Virus record (IMG/VR): IMGVR_UViG_3300033127_000053
Length of the DNA: 20,000 bases
Strand: one strand, 5' to 3'
Source of the DNA: an uncultured virus (IMG/VR IMGVR_UViG_3300033127_000053)
Taxonomy: Duplodnaviria > Heunggongvirae > Uroviricota > Caudoviricetes
A program made the translations under genes and the position numbers. A model generated the notes under the pieces. The model had not been told where the DNA came from and did not search any database. It saw only the letters and a program-made list of their open reading frames with translations. Below, piece by piece: positions 4,277 through 14,737 of this stretch. Every line of letters starts with the position of its first letter. Position 1 is the first letter of the stretch.

Positions 4277-4595
4277 AAAACCAACGCTAACAACTGTGAT
4301 GGTCGCAATGCACAGCCGCGAGCATGAGACGTATTACTTGCAGACGCAAGGCATTTGTAAAAACGGCCTGTGCATCGTTAAGCGCTCGCGCTTCATGAAG
4401 AATGACAGCTCTGACGACCATTCTGTTATCCATCATGGCTCGGGCCAAAAGATTGCTTTGTGCACGTCTCACGCGGACGCCGTGAAGCTCATCAAAAGAT
4501 TGCTTAGCAGCTCGGTTAACTGGCACAAATCAGCCGAAGATCTAAAGAAAGAAAAAGAAGTAATTGAGAGATTATGTGATGAGGAAAACATTTAA
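4266..4595 (+). CDS. Hypothetical protein
   Basis: 109-aa ORF overlapping both neighbours, in operon-like packing. Confidence 0.65.
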   Translation: MMSKKPTLTTVMVAMHSREHETYYLQTQGICKNGLCIVKRSRFMKNDSSDDHSVIHHGSGQKIALCTSHADAVKLIKRLLSSSVNWHKSAEDLKKEKEVIERLCDEENI

Positions 4596-6849
4596 CCCCT
4601 ATGAGCATGTTGCAGTCAAAACGGTCATGGAGTTAGATCAAGAATCGGGGACTATGCTGAGTCATGGATCTAGTTTAATCACCGAAGATGACGAGCTCGC
4701 TAAAAATCTACACTGGAAACCTAAGCCCGTTAAGAAGTTGGCGCAGTGGAAACCGACGCCTGTAGTCCCATACAACGGCTCGTCGAACTCGCCTAACGTT
4801 CTCTATCTTGATATTGAAACCGAGGGGTTGAATCCTCAGACTGACCGGGTGACGATGATCGGCGTTAGAATCGACGGCCCGTGGCCTAAGCTATCAGCCA
4901 AACACCACAAGAAACTATTAACAGGCTACATTTTCCAAGCGTCTAAACCTGATAATGACGCCGCTGAAAAGAGGATATTAGACCGAGTCTCTAAGTTTAT
5001 CCGCAAGAATAACCCCGACATCGTGTCAACACACAACGGCTTCGGGTTCGACATGCCTTTCCTAGCTGCGCGAATGAAGATTCTTGGTAGCAGAAAGATC
5101 ATTCATGTGCTGCCTAATACCCGTGTGATTACGTCGGCTTCTATGTTTGGTAAGCCTATTGAGTTCTACCCGGCGTATTTCAAAGCCCCTAATCAACGGG
5201 GATATGTCGACAACAAGGGCGGGTTTCCGCAGATAGTCGATACGATGTTTCTGGCTGCGCAGCTCGATAAGATTAAGGCGAACATGTCGTCGTATTCACT
5301 CAAATATCTAGGCGAGTATGTCAAGTTCCGCGAAGCCGATGACCGGGTAACCCTCAAGCACGACGAGATCATCGGCTATTGGAAATCACAGGATCCTGAA
5401 AAGCTAGCGATTTTAAGGCAATATCTGATGGATGACTTAGCCGATCAAAAGGCTGTATCTGACTATTTCATTCCGATGATTTGGTTCCAACAGATGTTTA
5501 TCCCCTTGCCCGTGCAAGAGTTAGCCACGGCGAGCCCTGCGAAGAAGTGGAATAAATTAATCTCTGACTATTACGGTTTGCCCTATTACAAGCTGCCTGA
5601 AGCCGACGAGAAGTTAGCTTATGAAGGCGCAATGACTGACTGCATACCGGGGTTGTATCACAACTTCTTTAAGATTGACGTATCGAGCCTGTACCCGTCG
5701 CTCGTAATTAGATACGACCTCGTGCCCCATGAGAAGGATCCCGAGCGCGTCTCTATCGTGGCCTTAGAGACGTTTAGAGACCTGCGGTATGTGTTTAAGG
5801 CGCTAGCCAGTGATACACCGCTTAGAGTGCTTAAAATGCCTGCGTGGGTGGACAATCCCGATCTATTCAAAGACATCGATCCGCATCACATCACCTCGTC
5901 AGAAAAGGCTAACTTTAGCGCTATCGACGGGTCTCTTAAGGTGTGCATTAACGGGTTCTACGGCTTTTTGGGCGTCGCAGGTTACAACTACAATTCTTGC
6001 GCGAGCGCCGCGCTAGTAACCGCATTTGGCCGGGTGCTCATGCGCGAGATGCTAGCGGTCTCAAAACGCTATTGTCACCTGATTAACCTTGACACAGACG
6101 GCCTGTGCTTACAGCCTAGATTTGCCCATGAGGTAGCCGAAGAACACCTCACCGGCGAGGCACATGAGATGTTTGAGCTTAACGCTGACGGCGAGCCCGT
6201 TATAAACCCTGAATTTGTGCACGCTCAGGTTCAAGCAGTGTTACCCGAGGGTATCAATATTGAACTTGAGGACAGATGCCCGACCGGCGCTATCTACGCA
6301 CCCAAAAAGAAGAATTACATCTATTGGGAAAAACCCGACGGCAAGCCCAAATGTAAAGGCGTGTTCCGCAAGCGTAACCGTACAGGCGTGCAGAAGAAAT
6401 TCCCTATTAACTACATTTGGAATAGAGCGTTCAAAGGCGAAGAGGCAGCGGAACAATACTATGATAAAGTGGTTACGTTAATAGAAAAGTCATCTGAACA
6501 GGGGTTATCTATCAGCCATAGCGCGTTGAAAAACCTTGCTATTACTAAGCGTGTGCCTATCTCCGATAAGGCTCTAACAGCGGCCAACGTTGCCAAACAT
6601 GGCGAACAGGCTACCTTTTATTGGGCATCTTGGCAGGAATACACGCCTAAAAAGGGTGATCCTAAAAAGAAATTATCGCGGTTCCCCGTGCGGGTCACTG
6701 ACTTCGACGGCAAGTTGCGTGCAAACTTACAACAAGTGCCTGAGAGTATAGACCCGAAAGACTTGTTTTTTAACCTTAACAAGCAGTGGTATTTGGACGA
6801 CCTAAACAAGATTAAAAGGGAGATTTTAGATAATATTGTGAGGTATTAA
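4579..6849 (+). CDS. Family B DNA polymerase with 3'-5' exonuclease
   Basis: ExoI LDIETEG, ExoII HNGFGFDMPFL, ExoIII YLMDD; motif A IDVSSLYPS, motif B KVCINGFYG, TAFGR, motif C NLDTDG, KKKNY, KCKG. ATG 4579 chosen; TTG 4564 is in frame. Confidence 0.93.
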   Translation: MRKTFNPYEHVAVKTVMELDQESGTMLSHGSSLITEDDELAKNLHWKPKPVKKLAQWKPTPVVPYNGSSNSPNVLYLDIETEGLNPQTDRVTMIGVRIDGPWPKLSAKHHKKLLTGYIFQASKPDNDAAEKRILDRVSKFIRKNNPDIVSTHNGFGFDMPFLAARMKILGSRKIIHVLPNTRVITSASMFGKPIEFYPAYFKAPNQRGYVDNKGGFPQIVDTMFLAAQLDKIKANMSSYSLKYLGEYVKFREADDRVTLKHDEIIGYWKSQDPEKLAILRQYLMDDLADQKAVSDYFIPMIWFQQMFIPLPVQELATASPAKKWNKLISDYYGLPYYKLPEADEKLAYEGAMTDCIPGLYHNFFKIDVSSLYPSLVIRYDLVPHEKDPERVSIVALETFRDLRYVFKALASDTPLRVLKMPAWVDNPDLFKDIDPHHITSSEKANFSAIDGSLKVCINGFYGFLGVAGYNYNSCASAALVTAFGRVLMREMLAVSKRYCHLINLDTDGLCLQPRFAHEVAEEHLTGEAHEMFELNADGEPVINPEFVHAQVQAVLPEGINIELEDRCPTGAIYAPKKKNYIYWEKPDGKPKCKGVFRKRNRTGVQKKFPINYIWNRAFKGEEAAEQYYDKVVTLIEKSSEQGLSISHSALKNLAITKRVPISDKALTAANVAKHGEQATFYWASWQEYTPKKGDPKKKLSRFPVRVTDFDGKLRANLQQVPESIDPKDLFFNLNKQWYLDDLNKIKREILDNIVRY

Positions 6850-9361: not shown

Positions 9362-9381
9362 CTAATCGAATAGGTGTAATG

Positions 9382-9418
9382 AATTCCCGCGTCATTTAAT
9401 TGGGCGTGGGAATTTTTT
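9382..9418 (+). terminator. Rho-independent terminator ending the replication module
   Basis: AATTCCCGCGTC-loop-GGCGTGGGAATT followed by a T-run. Confidence 0.75.
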
Positions 9419-9442
9419 ATATGCACCCAATTAACGTTAATT

Positions 9443-9829
9443 ATGGTTTTACACTACGCCGCCGATATCGGTTTTAGCTTCCTACTTTTAGGCATTGCTG
9501 AAGCCATCGTTAAGCCATTTGCAATTGAGTTTGTAGACCGCGTCTTTTTGCCTAACCTGCGTGATATTTACATCGAAGAGATTAACCCACGCTCGGGCGA
9601 ATGGTTCAGTGAAGGTCGCACCCGCGAGGAAATGATCGAAGAGATCAGCGGTGTGATGGCCAATCGGATCAATAACTTTGCTAAGCAGGCAAAACCTATC
9701 AGGAAATATTTGATTAAGCGTTTACGAAGTCAGTACGACTTCGTCGAACATGCTGCGGTCGTTAAAGAAGCCGGGGTTAAAACGGTACCTGCGTCTACGT
9801 CTGAGGAGGTGGTAATAGATGGTGAGTAA
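9443..9829 (+). CDS. Small protein with N-terminal hydrophobic segment (first gene of the lysis cassette)
   Basis: IGFSFLLLGIAEAIV hydrophobic stretch; overlaps the next gene by 11 nt. Confidence 0.7.
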   Translation: MVLHYAADIGFSFLLLGIAEAIVKPFAIEFVDRVFLPNLRDIYIEEINPRSGEWFSEGRTREEMIEEISGVMANRINNFAKQAKPIRKYLIKRLRSQYDFVEHAAVVKEAGVKTVPASTSEEVVIDGE

Positions 9830-10907
9830 TCCTTTATCGGGAGGTGATCAGCTTGAAGACATCGGCGAATCTGCGTATGTTGATCCGAATGACTTCGAAG
9901 TTCCCGAATCGCCTGTTTTCAATCCTGCGTGCCCTAAGAATGCAGAATTGTTTCAGGCGTGTTTTTTAAATGCGCCCATTGCGTTGATGTTAGTTGACGT
10001 CGACACCCGCAGGATTTACGAGTGGAATCCCTATGCCACGTCGTTATTTGGGTTTCAGCGAGATCAGGCCATTGGTGAGACCATCGGTTTGATTATCGAT
10101 CCGAGCACGATGTCAGAGTCAGAGCACGACGACTTTTTTGACAGATATGCTGCTAGGGGTATAGATGCCATGGCTCGAACCTTCGACAGGGGTCGAACTA
10201 TCCGAGGGCGCACGAAAGACGGTCGTAAGCCGTTTATCAGGGTAAAGGTGTTTCCTGCCGTCGGGCCTGATGGTAAGCAGTATATCGGCGCGGCGCTTGA
10301 GGATTTGTCACAGACTAACCAGTTATTGAGGGAAGTTGAATCCAGCAATAAGGAATTAGAGGCTAAACGGCATGAGCTAGAGTCTCTTTATCAGTCTCAG
10401 CTTGACTCTAATAGTAAGCTGTTTAACGATAACGTCGACCTAAACGACGCGCTGATAAAAGCCGAACAAGCGCGCGCCCGCGCTGATTTCCGTATACAGC
10501 AGTTTAGGGGACGGGCGACCATCATCAAGGCGCTACTTGGCGTCATTGTGGTCGGCTTGTTTTTCCCCATGTTGATCAGCGGCTTTAACCGAGTGCCGTC
10601 TGAAATTCTCCAGTTAAACCGTGACCTTCTCATCATCCTTGCCAGTTTATTATCTGCGTTAGGATCGGGCTTCTTTGGCTTGCAAGAAGGGCTTAGGGAG
10701 TCGGCTAATGTATCGCAGACGACTTACACCGGCGGCATGTATTCGCAACCGGCTGTACCAGGGCGCGAAGTAATTAGCCCCGCCCCTGGTGCGGACCCAT
10801 ACGAAGAGATGACCGTTAGGCCTGATTATTCAACGACCCCGCCTGTATCTACCCACACGCGCAGAGAAAGGATAGACACCCGAGAGACCATAAACGATGG
10901 CCCATGA
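9819..10907 (+). CDS. PAS-domain (FixL-like) + coiled-coil + 2-TM membrane protein
   Basis: PAS aa ~43-165: FLNAPIALMLVD, IYEWNPYATSLFGFQRDQAIGETIGLII, HDDFFDRY, GRTIRGRTKDG, AALEDLSQ. Coiled coil aa ~166-230; TMs aa ~235-255 and ~270-288. Strong SD GAGGAGG upstream. Confidence 0.85.
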   Translation: MVSNPLSGGDQLEDIGESAYVDPNDFEVPESPVFNPACPKNAELFQACFLNAPIALMLVDVDTRRIYEWNPYATSLFGFQRDQAIGETIGLIIDPSTMSESEHDDFFDRYAARGIDAMARTFDRGRTIRGRTKDGRKPFIRVKVFPAVGPDGKQYIGAALEDLSQTNQLLREVESSNKELEAKRHELESLYQSQLDSNSKLFNDNVDLNDALIKAEQARARADFRIQQFRGRATIIKALLGVIVVGLFFPMLISGFNRVPSEILQLNRDLLIILASLLSALGSGFFGLQEGLRESANVSQTTYTGGMYSQPAVPGREVISPAPGADPYEEMTVRPDYSTTPPVSTHTRRERIDTRETINDGP

Positions 10908-11545
10908 GACGAATAAACAGATCGATTAACACCTTTTCATCAAGGCTACGCAGATCGCTGACGGACAACCTTATCCCTATCGGTATTTTTTCGGCGATCG
11001 CGCTACTTCTTCAGTACATCTGGGTAGGCGCGTTATCGGGCGCGTGCGTCGTTGATATCGAGTCTGATATCAGTAGTCGCTACATCCCTTTAATTCAAAA
11101 AAAGGTGACTGCTGAGTCGGTGATGAAGACGTATTTTAATAACGAGTTACGCGCCGACTCGATGCGGGTATTTCTGCTGAGCTCAGACTTTAGCTCGCGC
11201 GTTGAATTTGCCGCTGTGGTCAATCCGAATAGCTCACAAAAAATAGGCACGGTGAACTTTGCACCGTTGGTCGGTGACACGTATCTCAATCAAAAAGACG
11301 CCCATGAATCGGGCCGGTGCATCAATATCATTGTTTCTAAAGAAAAACCCGGCGGTTACCGCACCGCCGCCGAACGTGCCAAAGTAGCTGAGTTTATATC
11401 TTGCCCCATATTCTCGCAGCGAAATTTCCTAATCGGCTACACGGCGACCGCCTATGAAACAGTGTTACCCGATTTTGAAATCGATCCGCTCATGGCGAGA
11501 TTGAAGCTAGAGACTGAGTCTTTAGCTGAAATTCTAGCCGGTTGA
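10904..11545 (+). CDS. Single-TM + GAF-like domain protein, resembling T4 holin T
   Basis: Basic N-terminus, TM LIPIGIFSAIALLLQYIWVGAL, ELRADSMRVFLL, HESGRC, FISCPIFSQRNFLIGYTATAY, C-terminal helix ending LAEILAG. 213 aa; ATGA overlap with the PAS gene. Confidence 0.65.
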   Translation: MRRINRSINTFSSRLRRSLTDNLIPIGIFSAIALLLQYIWVGALSGACVVDIESDISSRYIPLIQKKVTAESVMKTYFNNELRADSMRVFLLSSDFSSRVEFAAVVNPNSSQKIGTVNFAPLVGDTYLNQKDAHESGRCINIIVSKEKPGGYRTAAERAKVAEFISCPIFSQRNFLIGYTATAYETVLPDFEIDPLMARLKLETESLAEILAG

Positions 11546-12171
11546 TGTTGATTATGTATAACAATTGGCCCGAGCGAGAACGCAAGATAAACCGAGCTAA
11601 AACCAGACACGCTATTAAGAAATGGCTTGGTTATTTCTTAATTTTCGTCGGGTTTTACGTGTGGCTATGGAAACCGCCGATAGTCTGTGATTACTACACC
11701 GGCGACCCGTATATTTGGTATCAAGATGTAGATCGTGCTTATCGGTTCGAGCGCTTGGCTAACCAGATTAGAGAAACAGCGGCCATGGGCGTTGGCAGTG
11801 ATGTGTCAGCGTTCTATCTAATCAACCGCGAGTCGCTGACGTTGGTAGCCGGTGACGATGAAAGCGACCGTGTTCGCGGCGTGCTCGATTCTCAGCAACA
11901 ACTCTATTATGATCTTGCCAAAGATAAAGGATGTGTGCCTATAAACTTCCGCGCAATCGTCGGGCCATGGGCTAAGACCTACTTAGACGCGGGTATCAAC
12001 CACGCGGTTTTGTGCTCGATTAGATCTCGCGTTGGCCAGATGCGCGGCGCGTTGGCCTTCGGTTATTTTGGCGACGACCCGCCTAATTTTGATGAAGTGT
12101 TCCAAACGGTCGCGCCCTATCGTAAAGAACTCAATGAACTAGCCTTAAAAGAGGCTAACGGGGTGTACTAA
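11545..12171 (+). CDS. Second single-TM + GAF-like domain protein (paralog of the upstream gene)
   Basis: Basic N-terminus, TM WLGYFLIFVGFYVWLW, VGSDVSAFYLIN, AGINHAVLCSIRSRVGQMRGALAFGY, C-terminal helix. TGATG overlap with the upstream gene. Confidence 0.6.
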   Translation: MLIMYNNWPERERKINRAKTRHAIKKWLGYFLIFVGFYVWLWKPPIVCDYYTGDPYIWYQDVDRAYRFERLANQIRETAAMGVGSDVSAFYLINRESLTLVAGDDESDRVRGVLDSQQQLYYDLAKDKGCVPINFRAIVGPWAKTYLDAGINHAVLCSIRSRVGQMRGALAFGYFGDDPPNFDEVFQTVAPYRKELNELALKEANGVY

Positions 12172-12204
12172 GATTTAGGATGTCCACTAACAATTGAACC
12201 GACG

Positions 12205-12918
12205 ATGACAAGCCTTAAAACAATTCGAATCACTGACAAAACGCCGATAAAAGCATCACTAGCAATGATGAAAGACTTAGCGCCCGCCGACATTCACATG
12301 TTGAACGTCGGGCCGCTATATGTTGAGAAATACCCGACCGATTCAGACCGCTCTCACATCTACGTAGTTCCGACTAAACAGGACATTCCAAGCGGTTACA
12401 TTTATGTAGGTGATACCAATTGGGAACCTATTAACACTGAGCCGTCGTCGGTGCGAGGTAACCCAACTTATTATCAGATGCATGAAGACGGGCTGACGTT
12501 GTTGCAAGACTTCGAAGGGTGTGAGCTTCAGGCATATGTTGACTGTTGCGGCGTGTGGACGATTGGCCACGGGCACACGGGATCCGACGTTTACAAAGGT
12601 AAGCGAATTAGCAAACATGACGCCGAATTATTGCTTCAAAAAGACGTCGAATGGGTAGAGCGAAATGTTAAGCAGCTTGTGACCGCTGACATCAGCCTTA
12701 AGGAATTCTCGGCATTATGTTGTTTTGTGTTTAACATTGGCGTCGGCGCGTTTTCCGATAGCACGATGTTAAAACTATTGAACAAGCGTGATTATGCGGG
12801 TGCGTCTGCTCAGTTCCTGAGATGGAACAAAGGCGTCATTGAAGGTGAAGTCAGAGAAATCGCCGGATTGACTCGCCGTCGTCTTGCCGAACAAAGCCTG
12901 TTCGATTCGATTGTTTAG
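12205..12918 (+). CDS. Endolysin, GH24 phage lysozyme with an N-terminal extra domain
   Basis: GLTLLQDFEGCELQAYVDCCGVWTIGHGHT (catalytic E-x8-D-x5-T), FSALCCFVFNIGVGAF..STMLKLLN, FLRWNK, GLTRRRLAEQSLF. Confidence 0.93.
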   Translation: MTSLKTIRITDKTPIKASLAMMKDLAPADIHMLNVGPLYVEKYPTDSDRSHIYVVPTKQDIPSGYIYVGDTNWEPINTEPSSVRGNPTYYQMHEDGLTLLQDFEGCELQAYVDCCGVWTIGHGHTGSDVYKGKRISKHDAELLLQKDVEWVERNVKQLVTADISLKEFSALCCFVFNIGVGAFSDSTMLKLLNKRDYAGASAQFLRWNKGVIEGEVREIAGLTRRRLAEQSLFDSIV

Positions 12919-12970
12919 TGTGCCCATGTTTGCCGCCATCAAGTTTCAACCAAACGTGAGATCTTTCATC

Positions 12971-13336
12971 ATGCCCAAAACTCAAGAATTCTTTCTTTCA
13001 TCTACTGACCTTAAAGAAAAGAACGTCGACACGAGTGACGACGGGGTCATCGGACCCGGTGTGGCACCATCCGTCGAATCATTAACCCCGTCATTTATCA
13101 CGCCTGATTTACAACGCATGGCCGACGAGGCTAGAGATACCCGCCGGGCGATTAATTGGGACGCCTTGCAAGCCGATGTGTCGCCGGGTTCGTCTGTGGT
13201 AGATAAAGTCACCGATTTTCACACCGCAGGGTCGCGGCTTATTCATATGCTGGTGCCCAATTACACCGCGCGTAAGGTGCCTCTATCCCTGCTCAATGCT
13301 ATTTGTGACTACCTCGTCAACAACACTAACGTTTAA
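12971..13336 (+). CDS. Hypothetical protein between the two lysins
   Basis: ORF open from 12884; ATG 12971 (or 12926) avoids overlap with the lysozyme. Ends 3 nt before the M15 ATG. Confidence 0.6.
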   Translation: MPKTQEFFLSSTDLKEKNVDTSDDGVIGPGVAPSVESLTPSFITPDLQRMADEARDTRRAINWDALQADVSPGSSVVDKVTDFHTAGSRLIHMLVPNYTARKVPLSLLNAICDYLVNNTNV

Positions 13337-13339
13337 TTT

Positions 13340-14206
13340 ATGACTACTCAATCATTAATAATTACGCAAAACACCTACCTTAAAGGGTTACCGTTTGGCA
13401 GCAACCGCCTGAAAGCCGATGGTGTGACAAACCAGTTGTTGACCATAACAAAAGACACCGAACTTCCTTTAGTTGATTTAGATCACTTTAAGGGTAAGTT
13501 CGACGGGGTTAACTGCGGCCCGCACTACTACATCGAGCTAGAAAAGGCGCGCGCTGGGTATAAGCGTTGGTTCGTATGGGCGGGGCACGCTGACGAGGTG
13601 CACGCAGAGACCACAGAGCGCACCACACCGGCTAGAATACTCGAAGATGATGAAAAGGTCGCCGCTGCCAAAGCGACGGCTAAAATGAGCACGCAGGCCC
13701 TAGCAGAACCCGAGGCCGAAGTCGACATGGGCGAACGTCTAAGCATTCCCGGCATTTCTACGCCTACCTTCATGAACTCGCCGGTATTCTGGCTAGGTAA
13801 TAAGCCTGCACCGATCACATGGGGCGAAGTGTTGCAGTGGGACATCACCCGCGAACCCAAATCGGCGGCTATCGTCGGTCGTATTCTCAAAGTATGCCGA
13901 GTCATGCTAGAAGTGCGAGCCATGTATGCGCAGCCGCTGATTTTCACGAGCGGTTACCGTGACCCACGTAATAACCGTTTGCAGGGCGGATCGTCTAAGT
14001 CTAGGCATATGCAAGGCGACGCCGTTGACTTCTATCCTAAAAATGAAGGCATCACCGCGTCGGGCTGGAAATCACTTTGTAACCTTCACCGCACGGGCGG
14101 TCTTGCCGCTGGATCTGGATTCATGCACCTTGATTTAAGACCATGGCTTGCACACTGGTTATATGGCGGCGGTCCCAGCTTTGCTAATCGTCGCTATTAC
14201 GTTTAA
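13340..14206 (+). CDS. Peptidase M15A (Zn D-Ala-D-Ala carboxypeptidase-like) with N-terminal cyanobacterial-type domain
   Basis: TSGYRDPRNNRLQGGSSKSRHMQGDAVDF...GFMHLDLR (H, D, H zinc ligands); N-terminal NTYLK...HYYIEL...WFVWAGH. Confidence 0.88.
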   Translation: MTTQSLIITQNTYLKGLPFGSNRLKADGVTNQLLTITKDTELPLVDLDHFKGKFDGVNCGPHYYIELEKARAGYKRWFVWAGHADEVHAETTERTTPARILEDDEKVAAAKATAKMSTQALAEPEAEVDMGERLSIPGISTPTFMNSPVFWLGNKPAPITWGEVLQWDITREPKSAAIVGRILKVCRVMLEVRAMYAQPLIFTSGYRDPRNNRLQGGSSKSRHMQGDAVDFYPKNEGITASGWKSLCNLHRTGGLAAGSGFMHLDLRPWLAHWLYGGGPSFANRRYYV

Positions 14207-14416: not shown

Positions 14417-14737
14417 TCAACTATACAACAGAACTACCGACATCGCAGCCATTAACGACAACACGACAGCCAAAGGAACGACACTTATCAGTGTATTTTT
14501 TAGACGCCGGTTGCGCGCTTTCAACAGCTTAATGCGGCGTTGCTGGTAATAGTTCAAGTCGTGACAGTGATAGGCCCGGCGTGTTTGGTAGATGGCTAGA
14601 TTGATGAGCAGATCTCGATCTAGCTTCGAATATTTGAACCTGAGCCAACGCGTATTACGCAAGTGCAGACGCGGCGTTCTTCTTTGTCTAGGTATCCCTG
14701 CGGTTTGCCTGATGGCCCGTTTTTTAAATTCGTTCAT
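14417..14737 (-). CDS. Basic hypothetical protein with a C-terminal TM anchor
   Basis: Arg-rich body; terminal hydrophobic helix LISVVPLAVVLSLMAAMSVVLLYS. Confidence 0.65.
   Translation of the reverse strand: MNEFKKRAIRQTAGIPRQRRTPRLHLRNTRWLRFKYSKLDRDLLINLAIYQTRRAYHCHDLNYYQQRRIKLLKARNRRLKNTLISVVPLAVVLSLMAAMSVVLLYS

Follow-up and report, generated by a model that had tools for sequence, protein, structure and literature searches.

The stretch of DNA analysed here (hereafter, the window) comprises 20,000 nucleotides of an uncultured virus assigned to the Caudoviricetes (IMG/VR record IMGVR_UViG_3300033127_000053). We focused on a gene at 9819-10907 that encodes a 362-residue protein (hereafter, P0001) in which a PAS domain is followed by a coiled coil and two transmembrane (TM) helices. 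The gene is an open reading frame (ORF) on the plus strand, as are all its features given below, and its ATG start is preceded by a Shine-Dalgarno-like GAGGAGG run. The PAS domain (aa 40-162; 9936-10304), recognised by Pfam, by sequence comparison with PDB entries, by AlphaFold2 (AF2) modelling with Foldseek and by NCBIfam, is FixL/DosP-like and ends in an invariant Asp162. Its helix F-alpha bears His103 (CAC codon, 10125-10127), a candidate proximal heme ligand by alignment with the His of FixL and EcDOS, and the codons of Arg109 and Arg126 lie at 10143-10145 and 10194-10196, respectively. A coiled-coil linker (aa 163-232; 10305-10514), identified from the AF2 helix and by heptad scoring, keeps to a single unbroken heptad register, in which residues 177 and 198, both at 'a' positions, are Asn. 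It leads into TM helix 1 (aa 233-256; 10515-10586), which ends in an invariant Phe256. TM helix 2 (aa 268-288; 10620-10682) starts with [R/K]-Asp269 and has a small-residue face and an invariant G284-x-F286-G287 motif; both helices were delimited by hydropathy and alignment. The protein ends in a disordered, Pro/Thr/Ser-rich and net acidic tail (aa 289-362; 10683-10904), where the predicted local distance difference test score (pLDDT) is below 50 and the identity among homologues is 0.14.

A preliminary description of this DNA, made from its letters, had outlined the same protein. The ORF is open as claimed there, every peptide string it quoted is present, and the position of the His103 codon was verified. 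The PAS domain, the coiled coil, the two TM helices (the second ending in GSGFFG) and the Pro/Thr-rich tail that it named were all recovered by Pfam, AF2 and hydropathy. The PAS domain exceeded the Pfam gathering scores of PF00989 (28.5 bits vs 22.6) and PF13426 (28.1 vs 27), as well as the cut-off of the NCBIfam model TIGR00229 (31 bits vs 22.9). A Kyte-Doolittle scan placed the hydrophobic segments of P0001 at residues 235-253 and 270-288, and its homologues likewise have two, the second falling just below the threshold in one of eight. The AF2 model, which was built from an alignment of eight homologues, had a mean pLDDT of 69.2. The PAS core was folded confidently (blocks at pLDDT 82-95) and was followed by one continuous helix from 164 to 256 and a second from 261 to 291, with residues 285-362 at pLDDT < 50.

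Beyond the PAS domain, no further domain was detected in P0001 by Pfam, NCBIfam or PADLOC, and none that is catalytic; the earlier claim that the protein lacks a catalytic output thus agrees with the absence of any enzymatic domain in the Pfam and NCBIfam results. Specifically, no HisKA/HATPase_c kinase output was found with Pfam or NCBIfam, and the NCBIfam FixL model scored 23.6 bits against a cut-off of 850. A candidate H-box histidine, His184 in 'RHELESL', was dropped as it is not conserved in the homologues. Inspection by eye revealed no in-frame ATG, GTG or TTG with a Shine-Dalgarno-like run before TM helix 1 from which the hairpin could be translated by itself. At the other end of the protein, a short acidic motif, roughly Y/G-G-E..P.D, lies within aa 1-36 and recurs before the PAS domain in most of the homologue clusters; the region is modelled as disordered, and the motif may be a short linear binding motif.

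By sequence and by predicted fold, the PAS domain of P0001 is closest to the heme-binding FixL/DosP class. We searched PDB chains with a profile of the 17-sequence family alignment (hereafter, profile A3) and obtained 26 matches, the top of which was taken by 14 distinct heme-PAS sequences. These were seven FixL sequences (E-values of 1.4e-15 to 1e-12), six of DosP/EcDOS (4.6e-11 to 2.1e-9) and the FG214 heme-PAS 10jx (2.3e-7). The first non-heme PAS was that of BvgS at 3.4e-5, a gap of ten orders of E-value from the best heme-PAS. When P0001 alone was compared with all PDB chains, 17 distinct sequences were matched at E <= 1, and 11 of them, including the entire top eight, were FixL, EcDOS or DosP. 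The predicted structure gave a similar picture, as ranks 1-16 of a Foldseek search of the AF2 model against the PDB were FixL or DosP, with NifL and LOV domains next; the matches to the heme domains 1lt0 and 1drm had an E-value of 1.4e-9 and a TM-score of 0.82. FixL (1.8e-5) and DosP (0.024) were also the only specific NCBIfam models to match, with scores far below the full-length cut-offs because the match is confined to the PAS part. The preliminary description had proposed a FixL-like PAS domain, to be aligned with FixL and EcDOS structures, and had named a best match to cofactor-less PAS domains as evidence to the contrary. The alignment put heme-PAS domains first both by sequence and by Foldseek, and cofactor-less PAS domains were not the best matches (the top 14 of the 26 profile matches being heme-PAS).

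The closest PAS relatives of P0001 are giant proteins of 1,700-5,500 aa (P0002-P0034 and others), in each of which as many as 13 PAS stretches were matched. The FixL-type His is present in the majority of these stretches, which suggests that these metagenomic proteins hold long arrays of putative heme-PAS repeats.

The residues expected around a heme were then compared position by position. In HMMER alignments, His103 fell on the His of 'rHD..i.RY' in Bradyrhizobium FixL (1dp6) and Rhizobium FixL (1d06), and on the His of 'paHpeyi' in EcDOS. Asp104 aligned with the Asp of the FixL 'HD', Arg109 and Tyr110 with its 'RY', Arg126 with the Arg of 'igigRivtg', and Val142 and Val144 with two hydrophobic residues of the FixL distal strand. 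We take the counterparts of His103, Arg109, Arg126, Val142 and Val144 to be H200, R206, R220, L236 and I238 of the Bradyrhizobium protein, with which the chain offset agrees. His103 is kept in seven of the eight homologue clusters (10 of 16 full-length sequences), and the earlier assignment of this residue to the position of the proximal heme His was therefore upheld by its alignment with the ligand His of both FixL and EcDOS and by its conservation. The same description had called two arginines conserved. This is true of Arg126, at the R220 position, which is aligned and kept in seven of eight clusters; Arg109, at the R206 position, aligns with the FixL Arg and is kept in just two of eight. 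An FG-loop Met, presumably resembling the distal ligand of EcDOS, appears to be present in some family members only.

To place these columns in a wider set, aa 37-172 were compared by local phmmer with 161 retrieved proteins, and 693 PAS stretches were aligned. The His103 column held His in 544 of 610 non-gap cells and the Arg126 column Arg in 411 of 544, counts that show the class of the domain and not an unbiased frequency, because the 161 proteins were chosen by similarity to the query. The 'HD' and an aromatic residue at the position of the FixL 'RY' tyrosine were common to most of the related PAS stretches. FixL/DosP-type heme-binding PAS domains correspond to cluster 3 of Xing et al. 2023. 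According to PMC10468136, 40% of the sequences of the FixL/DosP PAS cluster are without the His and may have other specificities, and the residues at the distal and propionate arginine positions are treated as secondary. Taken together, the PAS domain of P0001 is predicted from its sequence to bind heme b, most likely via His103.

We searched 1.84 billion representatives exhaustively with HMMER and obtained 4423 proteins at E <= 0.001, most of which are multi-PAS proteins that match the PAS part alone. Among the best 150 of them, seven match nearly the full length as one stretch (258-366 aa), and with the cluster members the whole architecture is found in at least 8 clusters and at least 17 sequences. 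All eight clusters have the PAS domain, the coiled coil and the two TM helices, and most have the disordered tail as well; the architecture is thus not a chance arrangement, since eight homologue clusters possess all of it. As judged from these sequence searches, the family is rare in the collections searched. Seven columns are invariant in it, of which one, Asp162, marks the PAS exit and six, Phe256, Asp269, Leu274, Gly284, Phe286 and Gly287, are in the hairpin. The mean pairwise identity was 0.31 for the PAS domain, 0.28 for the coil, 0.36 for the hairpin and 0.14 for the tail. Because the hairpin, unlike the tail, equals or exceeds the PAS domain in conservation (0.36 vs 0.31), it can be taken to be more than a passive anchor.

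The longest contigs bearing family members were 77.9, 91.8, 46.9 and 18.1 kb long, and one was of 1.82 Mb. In the ESM Atlas, the nearest clusters are of short viral PAS proteins (247, 252 and 283 aa), which are leads and not alignments; viral members make up almost all of the three nearest (53, 163 and 59 members), and the first aligns structurally to residues 166-296 of P0001, i.e., the coiled coil and the hairpin, with a TM-score of 0.78, again a lead. Word-indexed protein searches returned nothing beyond the family members already found. No relatives of P0001 or of alignment A2 were found in the viral contig collection, and nothing in the genome contigs matched P0064 or alignment A2. The metagenome contigs gave only a weak, PAS-only match (L001), and the deposited phage records had no match for P0001, P0064 or P0055. 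When the hairpin segment was searched, five cyanophage records gave 25-residue TM matches at E-values of 0.04-0.05, which were dismissed as compositional.

The linker between the PAS domain and the membrane varies in length in a regular manner. The distance from Asp162 to Phe256 in the eight clusters was 94, 87, 80, 80, 73, 102, 80 and 80 residues. Relative to P0001, this corresponds to independent changes of -7 (P0035), -14 (a subfamily of four clusters), -21 (P0064) and +8 (P0084). Three of the four are divisible by 7, for which the binomial chance is 0.010. A single heptad register was the best-scoring one in P0001, from Leu163 through into TM helix 1, and Asn was found at column 177 and at column 198 in six of eight cluster representatives each. 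A coiled coil with Asn at 'a' positions tends to form parallel, in-register dimers. Linkers stepped in heptads typify PAS kinases and engineered LOV-FixL sensors when the output depends on the angular phase of sensor and effector. The heptad-quantised lengths and the one register that runs into TM helix 1 indicate a mechanical coupling of the PAS dimer to the TM1 pair, and this is our best-supported statement on mechanism. The preliminary description had suggested that a signal passes through the coiled coil directly to a membrane element; the heptad-quantised linker lends this independent support, and the mechanism would be of the kind set out below.

The PAS gene lies within a block of same-strand genes, overlapping or abutting one another, that extends from 9443 to 14206 and opens directly after the replication genes. 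Between the two lies a plus-strand terminator-like hairpin with a U-run (9374-9422), found by RNA folding. The fold of 9372-9425 had an energy of -23.2 kcal/mol and a z-score of -5.2, and none of 200 shuffles was as stable; a consensus terminator scan did not list this hairpin. The first gene of the block (9443-9829, plus strand) was taken from the ORF list and encodes a protein of 128 aa, whose N-terminal part contains a hydrophobic segment by hydropathy. Its end overlaps the start of the PAS gene by 11 nt, and its product had no Pfam, PHROG, NCBIfam or PADLOC match.

Downstream, the plus-strand gene at 10904-11545 encodes a 213-aa protein with a basic N-terminus, one TM segment and then about 165 aa of unknown fold (ORF list, hydropathy), and its ATG overlaps the TGA of the PAS gene (ATGA). 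It is followed by a plus-strand gene at 11542-12171 (ORF list), whose start overlaps the preceding stop by 4 nt and whose 209-aa product has a basic N-terminus, a short hydrophobic stretch and about 150 aa of unknown fold. The hydrophobic stretch of the latter was read by eye and is below the Kyte-Doolittle threshold. The two proteins are translationally coupled and alike in layout, with a basic N-terminus, a hydrophobic segment and a Cys a few residues later. Neither had a match in Pfam, NCBIfam, PHROGs, PADLOC, the PDB or the deposited phages. Paralogy of the pair was not supported (BLASTP E-value of 0.95), a GAF-like look of their C-terminal strands was an impression by eye that nothing supports, and a single-sequence model of the 213-aa protein was unusable (pLDDT 40.7).

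Two genes for cell-wall hydrolases complete the block. The first (12205-12918, plus strand) encodes a GH24 phage lysozyme (PF00959, 4.3e-41; phrog_7 endolysin, 3.7e-48) with an N-terminal extension of about 95 aa, and the tblastn matches of its product are annotated as endolysin. After a small ORF without an assigned function, the last gene of the block (13340-14206, plus strand) encodes a cell-wall peptidase of the Peptidase_M15_3 family (PF08291, 9e-15; phrog_894 endolysin, 1.7e-13) with an N-terminal extension of about 130 aa. Neither extension had a family match; they may be wall-binding modules or point to a virion-associated role. Hydropathy revealed no hydrophobic export segment in the lysozyme or the peptidase. 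Converging on the end of the block, a minus-strand gene at 14417-14737 encodes a very basic 106-aa protein without a family match, whose one C-terminal TM segment gives it a tail-anchored layout. No defence system was matched by PADLOC among nine proteins.

The replication genes of the window, also on the plus strand and assigned by PHROG matches, encode an exonuclease, a Gp2.5-like single-stranded DNA-binding protein, two helicases and a DNA polymerase. The nearest deposited relatives of the DNA polymerase (4564-6849) were those of Nostoc phages N1 and A1, Anabaena phage Elbi and YongM, at about 27-28% identity over 88% of the length, and Salinibacter phages ranked next after these phages of filamentous cyanobacteria. 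By polymerase sequence, these distances mark a deep, undescribed phage lineage. A cyanophage origin was dropped, as the identity to the Nostoc and Anabaena phage polymerases is only about 28%. No deposited phage record resembled the DNA of the window, and the sequencing runs that contain the stretch are labelled as marine and macroalgae metagenomes, with no RNA run listed among them.

Considering the protein and its neighbourhood together, we propose that P0001 is a phage-encoded, enzyme-less, one-component membrane sensor that would act on membrane permeabilisation. This is the best overall explanation we have, and we give it a probability of roughly 45%. At the first step, a cytoplasmic PAS domain of the FixL/DosP class would bind heme b via His103, with Arg126 as the distal or propionate-contacting arginine, and would report O2, another diatomic gas or the redox state of the heme; judging from the sequence comparisons, this step is probable. 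The PAS domain would exit at Asp162 into a parallel dimeric coiled coil, unbroken into TM helix 1. Because the coiled coil is continuous into that helix, ligand-induced changes of the PAS dimer would then make the TM1 pair rotate or shift. Such transmission, for which the anatomy and the linker lengths were observed and the mechanism is deduced, is the part of the proposal that we hold with the greatest confidence. The output would be the TM hairpin itself, with its invariant Phe256, Asp269, Gly284, Phe286 and Gly287 and the small-residue face of TM helix 2, and the switch would alter how it packs or oligomerises in the inner membrane.

The switch would serve to fix when the membrane is permeabilised, or to prevent it, with P0001 as a ligand-gated holin or, equally likely, an antiholin or holin regulator. 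From the gene context within the window we infer such a role in lysis timing, as it is most economical: both hydrolases, having no export segment, could reach the wall only through a membrane lesion. The context that suggests this purpose, an overlapping block with three membrane-anchored proteins and two hydrolases, makes it a tentative proposal that falls a little short of even odds. A membrane event such as host bursting may in this manner be tied to oxygen or redox state. Taken in its most specific form, i.e., a heme-based gas or redox sensor whose sole output is the membrane hairpin and which reads host oxygen or redox state as a ligand-gated holin or antiholin, the proposal is rather unlikely to hold in every part.

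Several observations weigh against the proposal. Regarding the sensor, the six full-length members of the P0090 cluster all carry Leu at the His103 position, and the FG loop of this cluster is shorter. The membrane function is probably not strictly dependent on His103, because this cluster keeps the hairpin. Arg126 is replaced by Ala in the P0064 cluster, Arg109 is poorly kept as described above, and the FG region of the AF2 model (aa 110-130) reached a pLDDT of only 66-72. Regarding the coupling, the linker change of +8 in P0084 is no multiple of 7, and this protein also has an insertion inside TM helix 1. P0064 is either cellular or in a prophage, because it is borne on the 1.82-Mb contig.

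The remaining observations of this kind concern the holin assignment. No significant holin match was obtained with Pfam or PHROG (E <= 0.001); the best PHROG matches were phrog_1544 (function unknown) for P0064 at 0.002, phrog_937 'hemolysin' for P0001 at 0.057 and phrog_3427 'holin' for P0090 at 0.15. Holins are small and their tails are usually basic. P0001, at 362 aa, is far larger than typical holins and has a net acidic tail (7 K+R vs 11 D+E), and the tail is net acidic or neutral in all eight cluster representatives. Two genes separate the PAS gene from the lysozyme gene, and the three other membrane proteins of the block are competing holin candidates. The lysins, given their long N-terminal extensions, could be other than classical endolysins. 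The holin or antiholin role put forward in the preliminary description therefore finds backing in a block with a lysozyme and a peptidase, yet none in holin family matches or in the charge of the tail, and it is retained here as a suggestion.

The alternative that survives best keeps the sensor and drops the lysis. P0001 would then be a membrane-anchored heme or redox sensor whose hairpin docks on another membrane protein and regulates it, with sensor kinases of the host, complexes of respiration or photosynthesis, transporters and the three phage membrane proteins nearby as candidates. Host physiology would be reprogrammed, or a superinfecting phage excluded, according to oxygen or redox state. 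All the evidence on sensor and coupling is identical for this alternative, and the missing holin homology, the acidic tail (holin tails being usually basic), the beginning of the block right after the replication genes and the three membrane-anchored neighbours as possible partners speak for it. The two cell-wall hydrolases that end the block and need a membrane lesion point the other way, as does the absence of a match to any PADLOC defence or exclusion family, and we consider this alternative, including its suggested partners and effects, possible and on balance unlikely.

A second alternative concerns the sensor itself: the PAS domain would carry no heme and would either serve dimerisation without a cofactor or sense another small ligand. 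In that case it would only set the oligomeric state of what is a constitutive coiled-coil scaffold or holin in the membrane. The replacement of His103 by Leu in one lineage, the poor retention of Arg109 and the 40% of the FixL/DosP PAS cluster that are without the His, as given above, are what such a domain would lead one to expect. Against this stand the retention of the His and of the distal Arg in seven of eight clusters each, the preference of the family profile for heme-PAS structures by ten orders of E-value, and the 'HD' and the aromatic at the 'RY' tyrosine position in most of the related PAS stretches, so that we regard a heme-less domain as improbable. Finally, P0001 could be a decoy that forms a heterodimer with a host FixL-like PAS histidine kinase via its PAS domain and coiled coil and silences it at the membrane, in line with a profile alignment to FixL that extends beyond the PAS domain into the FixL linker helix and with whole-protein structural neighbours in the ESM Atlas that are PAS histidine kinases (TM-score of about 0.5), but the low identity of the coil (0.28), the lack of a conserved H-box, His184 not being kept, and the strongly conserved hairpin motifs that a decoy leaves unexplained make this very improbable.

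What is new in P0001, as a phage-encoded and enzyme-less membrane sensor, is the combination of a FixL-type sensor with an enzyme-less membrane output in a phage. Heme-PAS sensors drive kinases, cyclic-di-GMP enzymes and transcription factors, and if the proposal is true, P0001 would be the first case of a FixL-type heme-PAS domain that acts on a membrane without an enzyme. An output that consists of a hairpin only would be a new route from a gas or redox signal to a membrane event. Holin timing is usually pictured as a built-in clock, set by concentration and responsive to the loss of membrane potential; if the proposal holds, P0001 would provide the first direct chemical input into holin triggering. 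A chemical sensor wired into the lysis region would let phages condition lysis on the metabolic state of the host. On macroalgal surfaces such a sensor might track oxygen changes, although swings of this kind are assumed there and were not observed in this study. With its heptad-quantised linker, P0001 also offers a compact natural starting point for the engineering of ligand-switched membrane effectors. In the literature we found no paper on a phage heme-PAS protein or a PAS-holin protein; predicted viral PAS proteins are present in BFVD, where they are uncharacterised.

Among the known systems, the FixL heme-PAS domains (1dp6, 1drm and 8js5 of Bradyrhizobium japonicum, and 1d06 of Sinorhizobium meliloti) are the most similar to P0001, being the best profile match and taking Foldseek ranks 1-11. 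Both have the F-alpha His and the 'HD..RY' motif as well as the distal Arg, and in both the PAS domain exits at an Asp directly into a helical linker, at an identity of about 20-23%. FixL feeds a HisKA/HATPase kinase, whereas the linker of P0001 ends in two TM helices; P0001 is phage-encoded, unlike FixL, and its heme binding is predicted. EcDOS/DosP (1v9y, 1s66, 9cdr) was the second-best class by profile and the best for the single sequence (3.9e-4), and its output is GGDEF-EAL, whereas P0001 is without an enzyme domain. The FG214 heme-PAS 10jx, with a profile E-value of 2.3e-7 and Foldseek rank 20, is likewise one-component and kinase-free; its output is a transcription factor according to the title of the PDB entry, and that of P0001 is a membrane hairpin.

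On the membrane side, P0001 resembles the class II holins and the pinholin S21 in its two-TM hairpin with both ends in the cytoplasm, the glycine-zipper-like small-residue face of TM helix 2 and a gene located near those of the lysins. Antiholins such as lambda S107 and T4 RI illustrate that the timing of lysis can be set by a sensing partner. P0001 differs from all of these in having no detectable homology to them, in being three to five times larger, in its acidic tail, in lacking a dual-start motif by eye and in not adjoining the lysozyme gene. On the phage side, VqmA-Phage of vibriophage VP882 was the sole phage PAS sensor to surface in our literature searches. VqmA-Phage reportedly senses the quorum-sensing ligand DPO. 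It combines its PAS domain with a DNA-binding output and is a cytoplasmic, transcriptional regulator without heme or TM segments, in contrast to P0001 with its predicted heme and its TM hairpin. Like P0001, it is a PAS sensor encoded by a phage, and it reportedly ties a small-molecule signal to the lysis decision.

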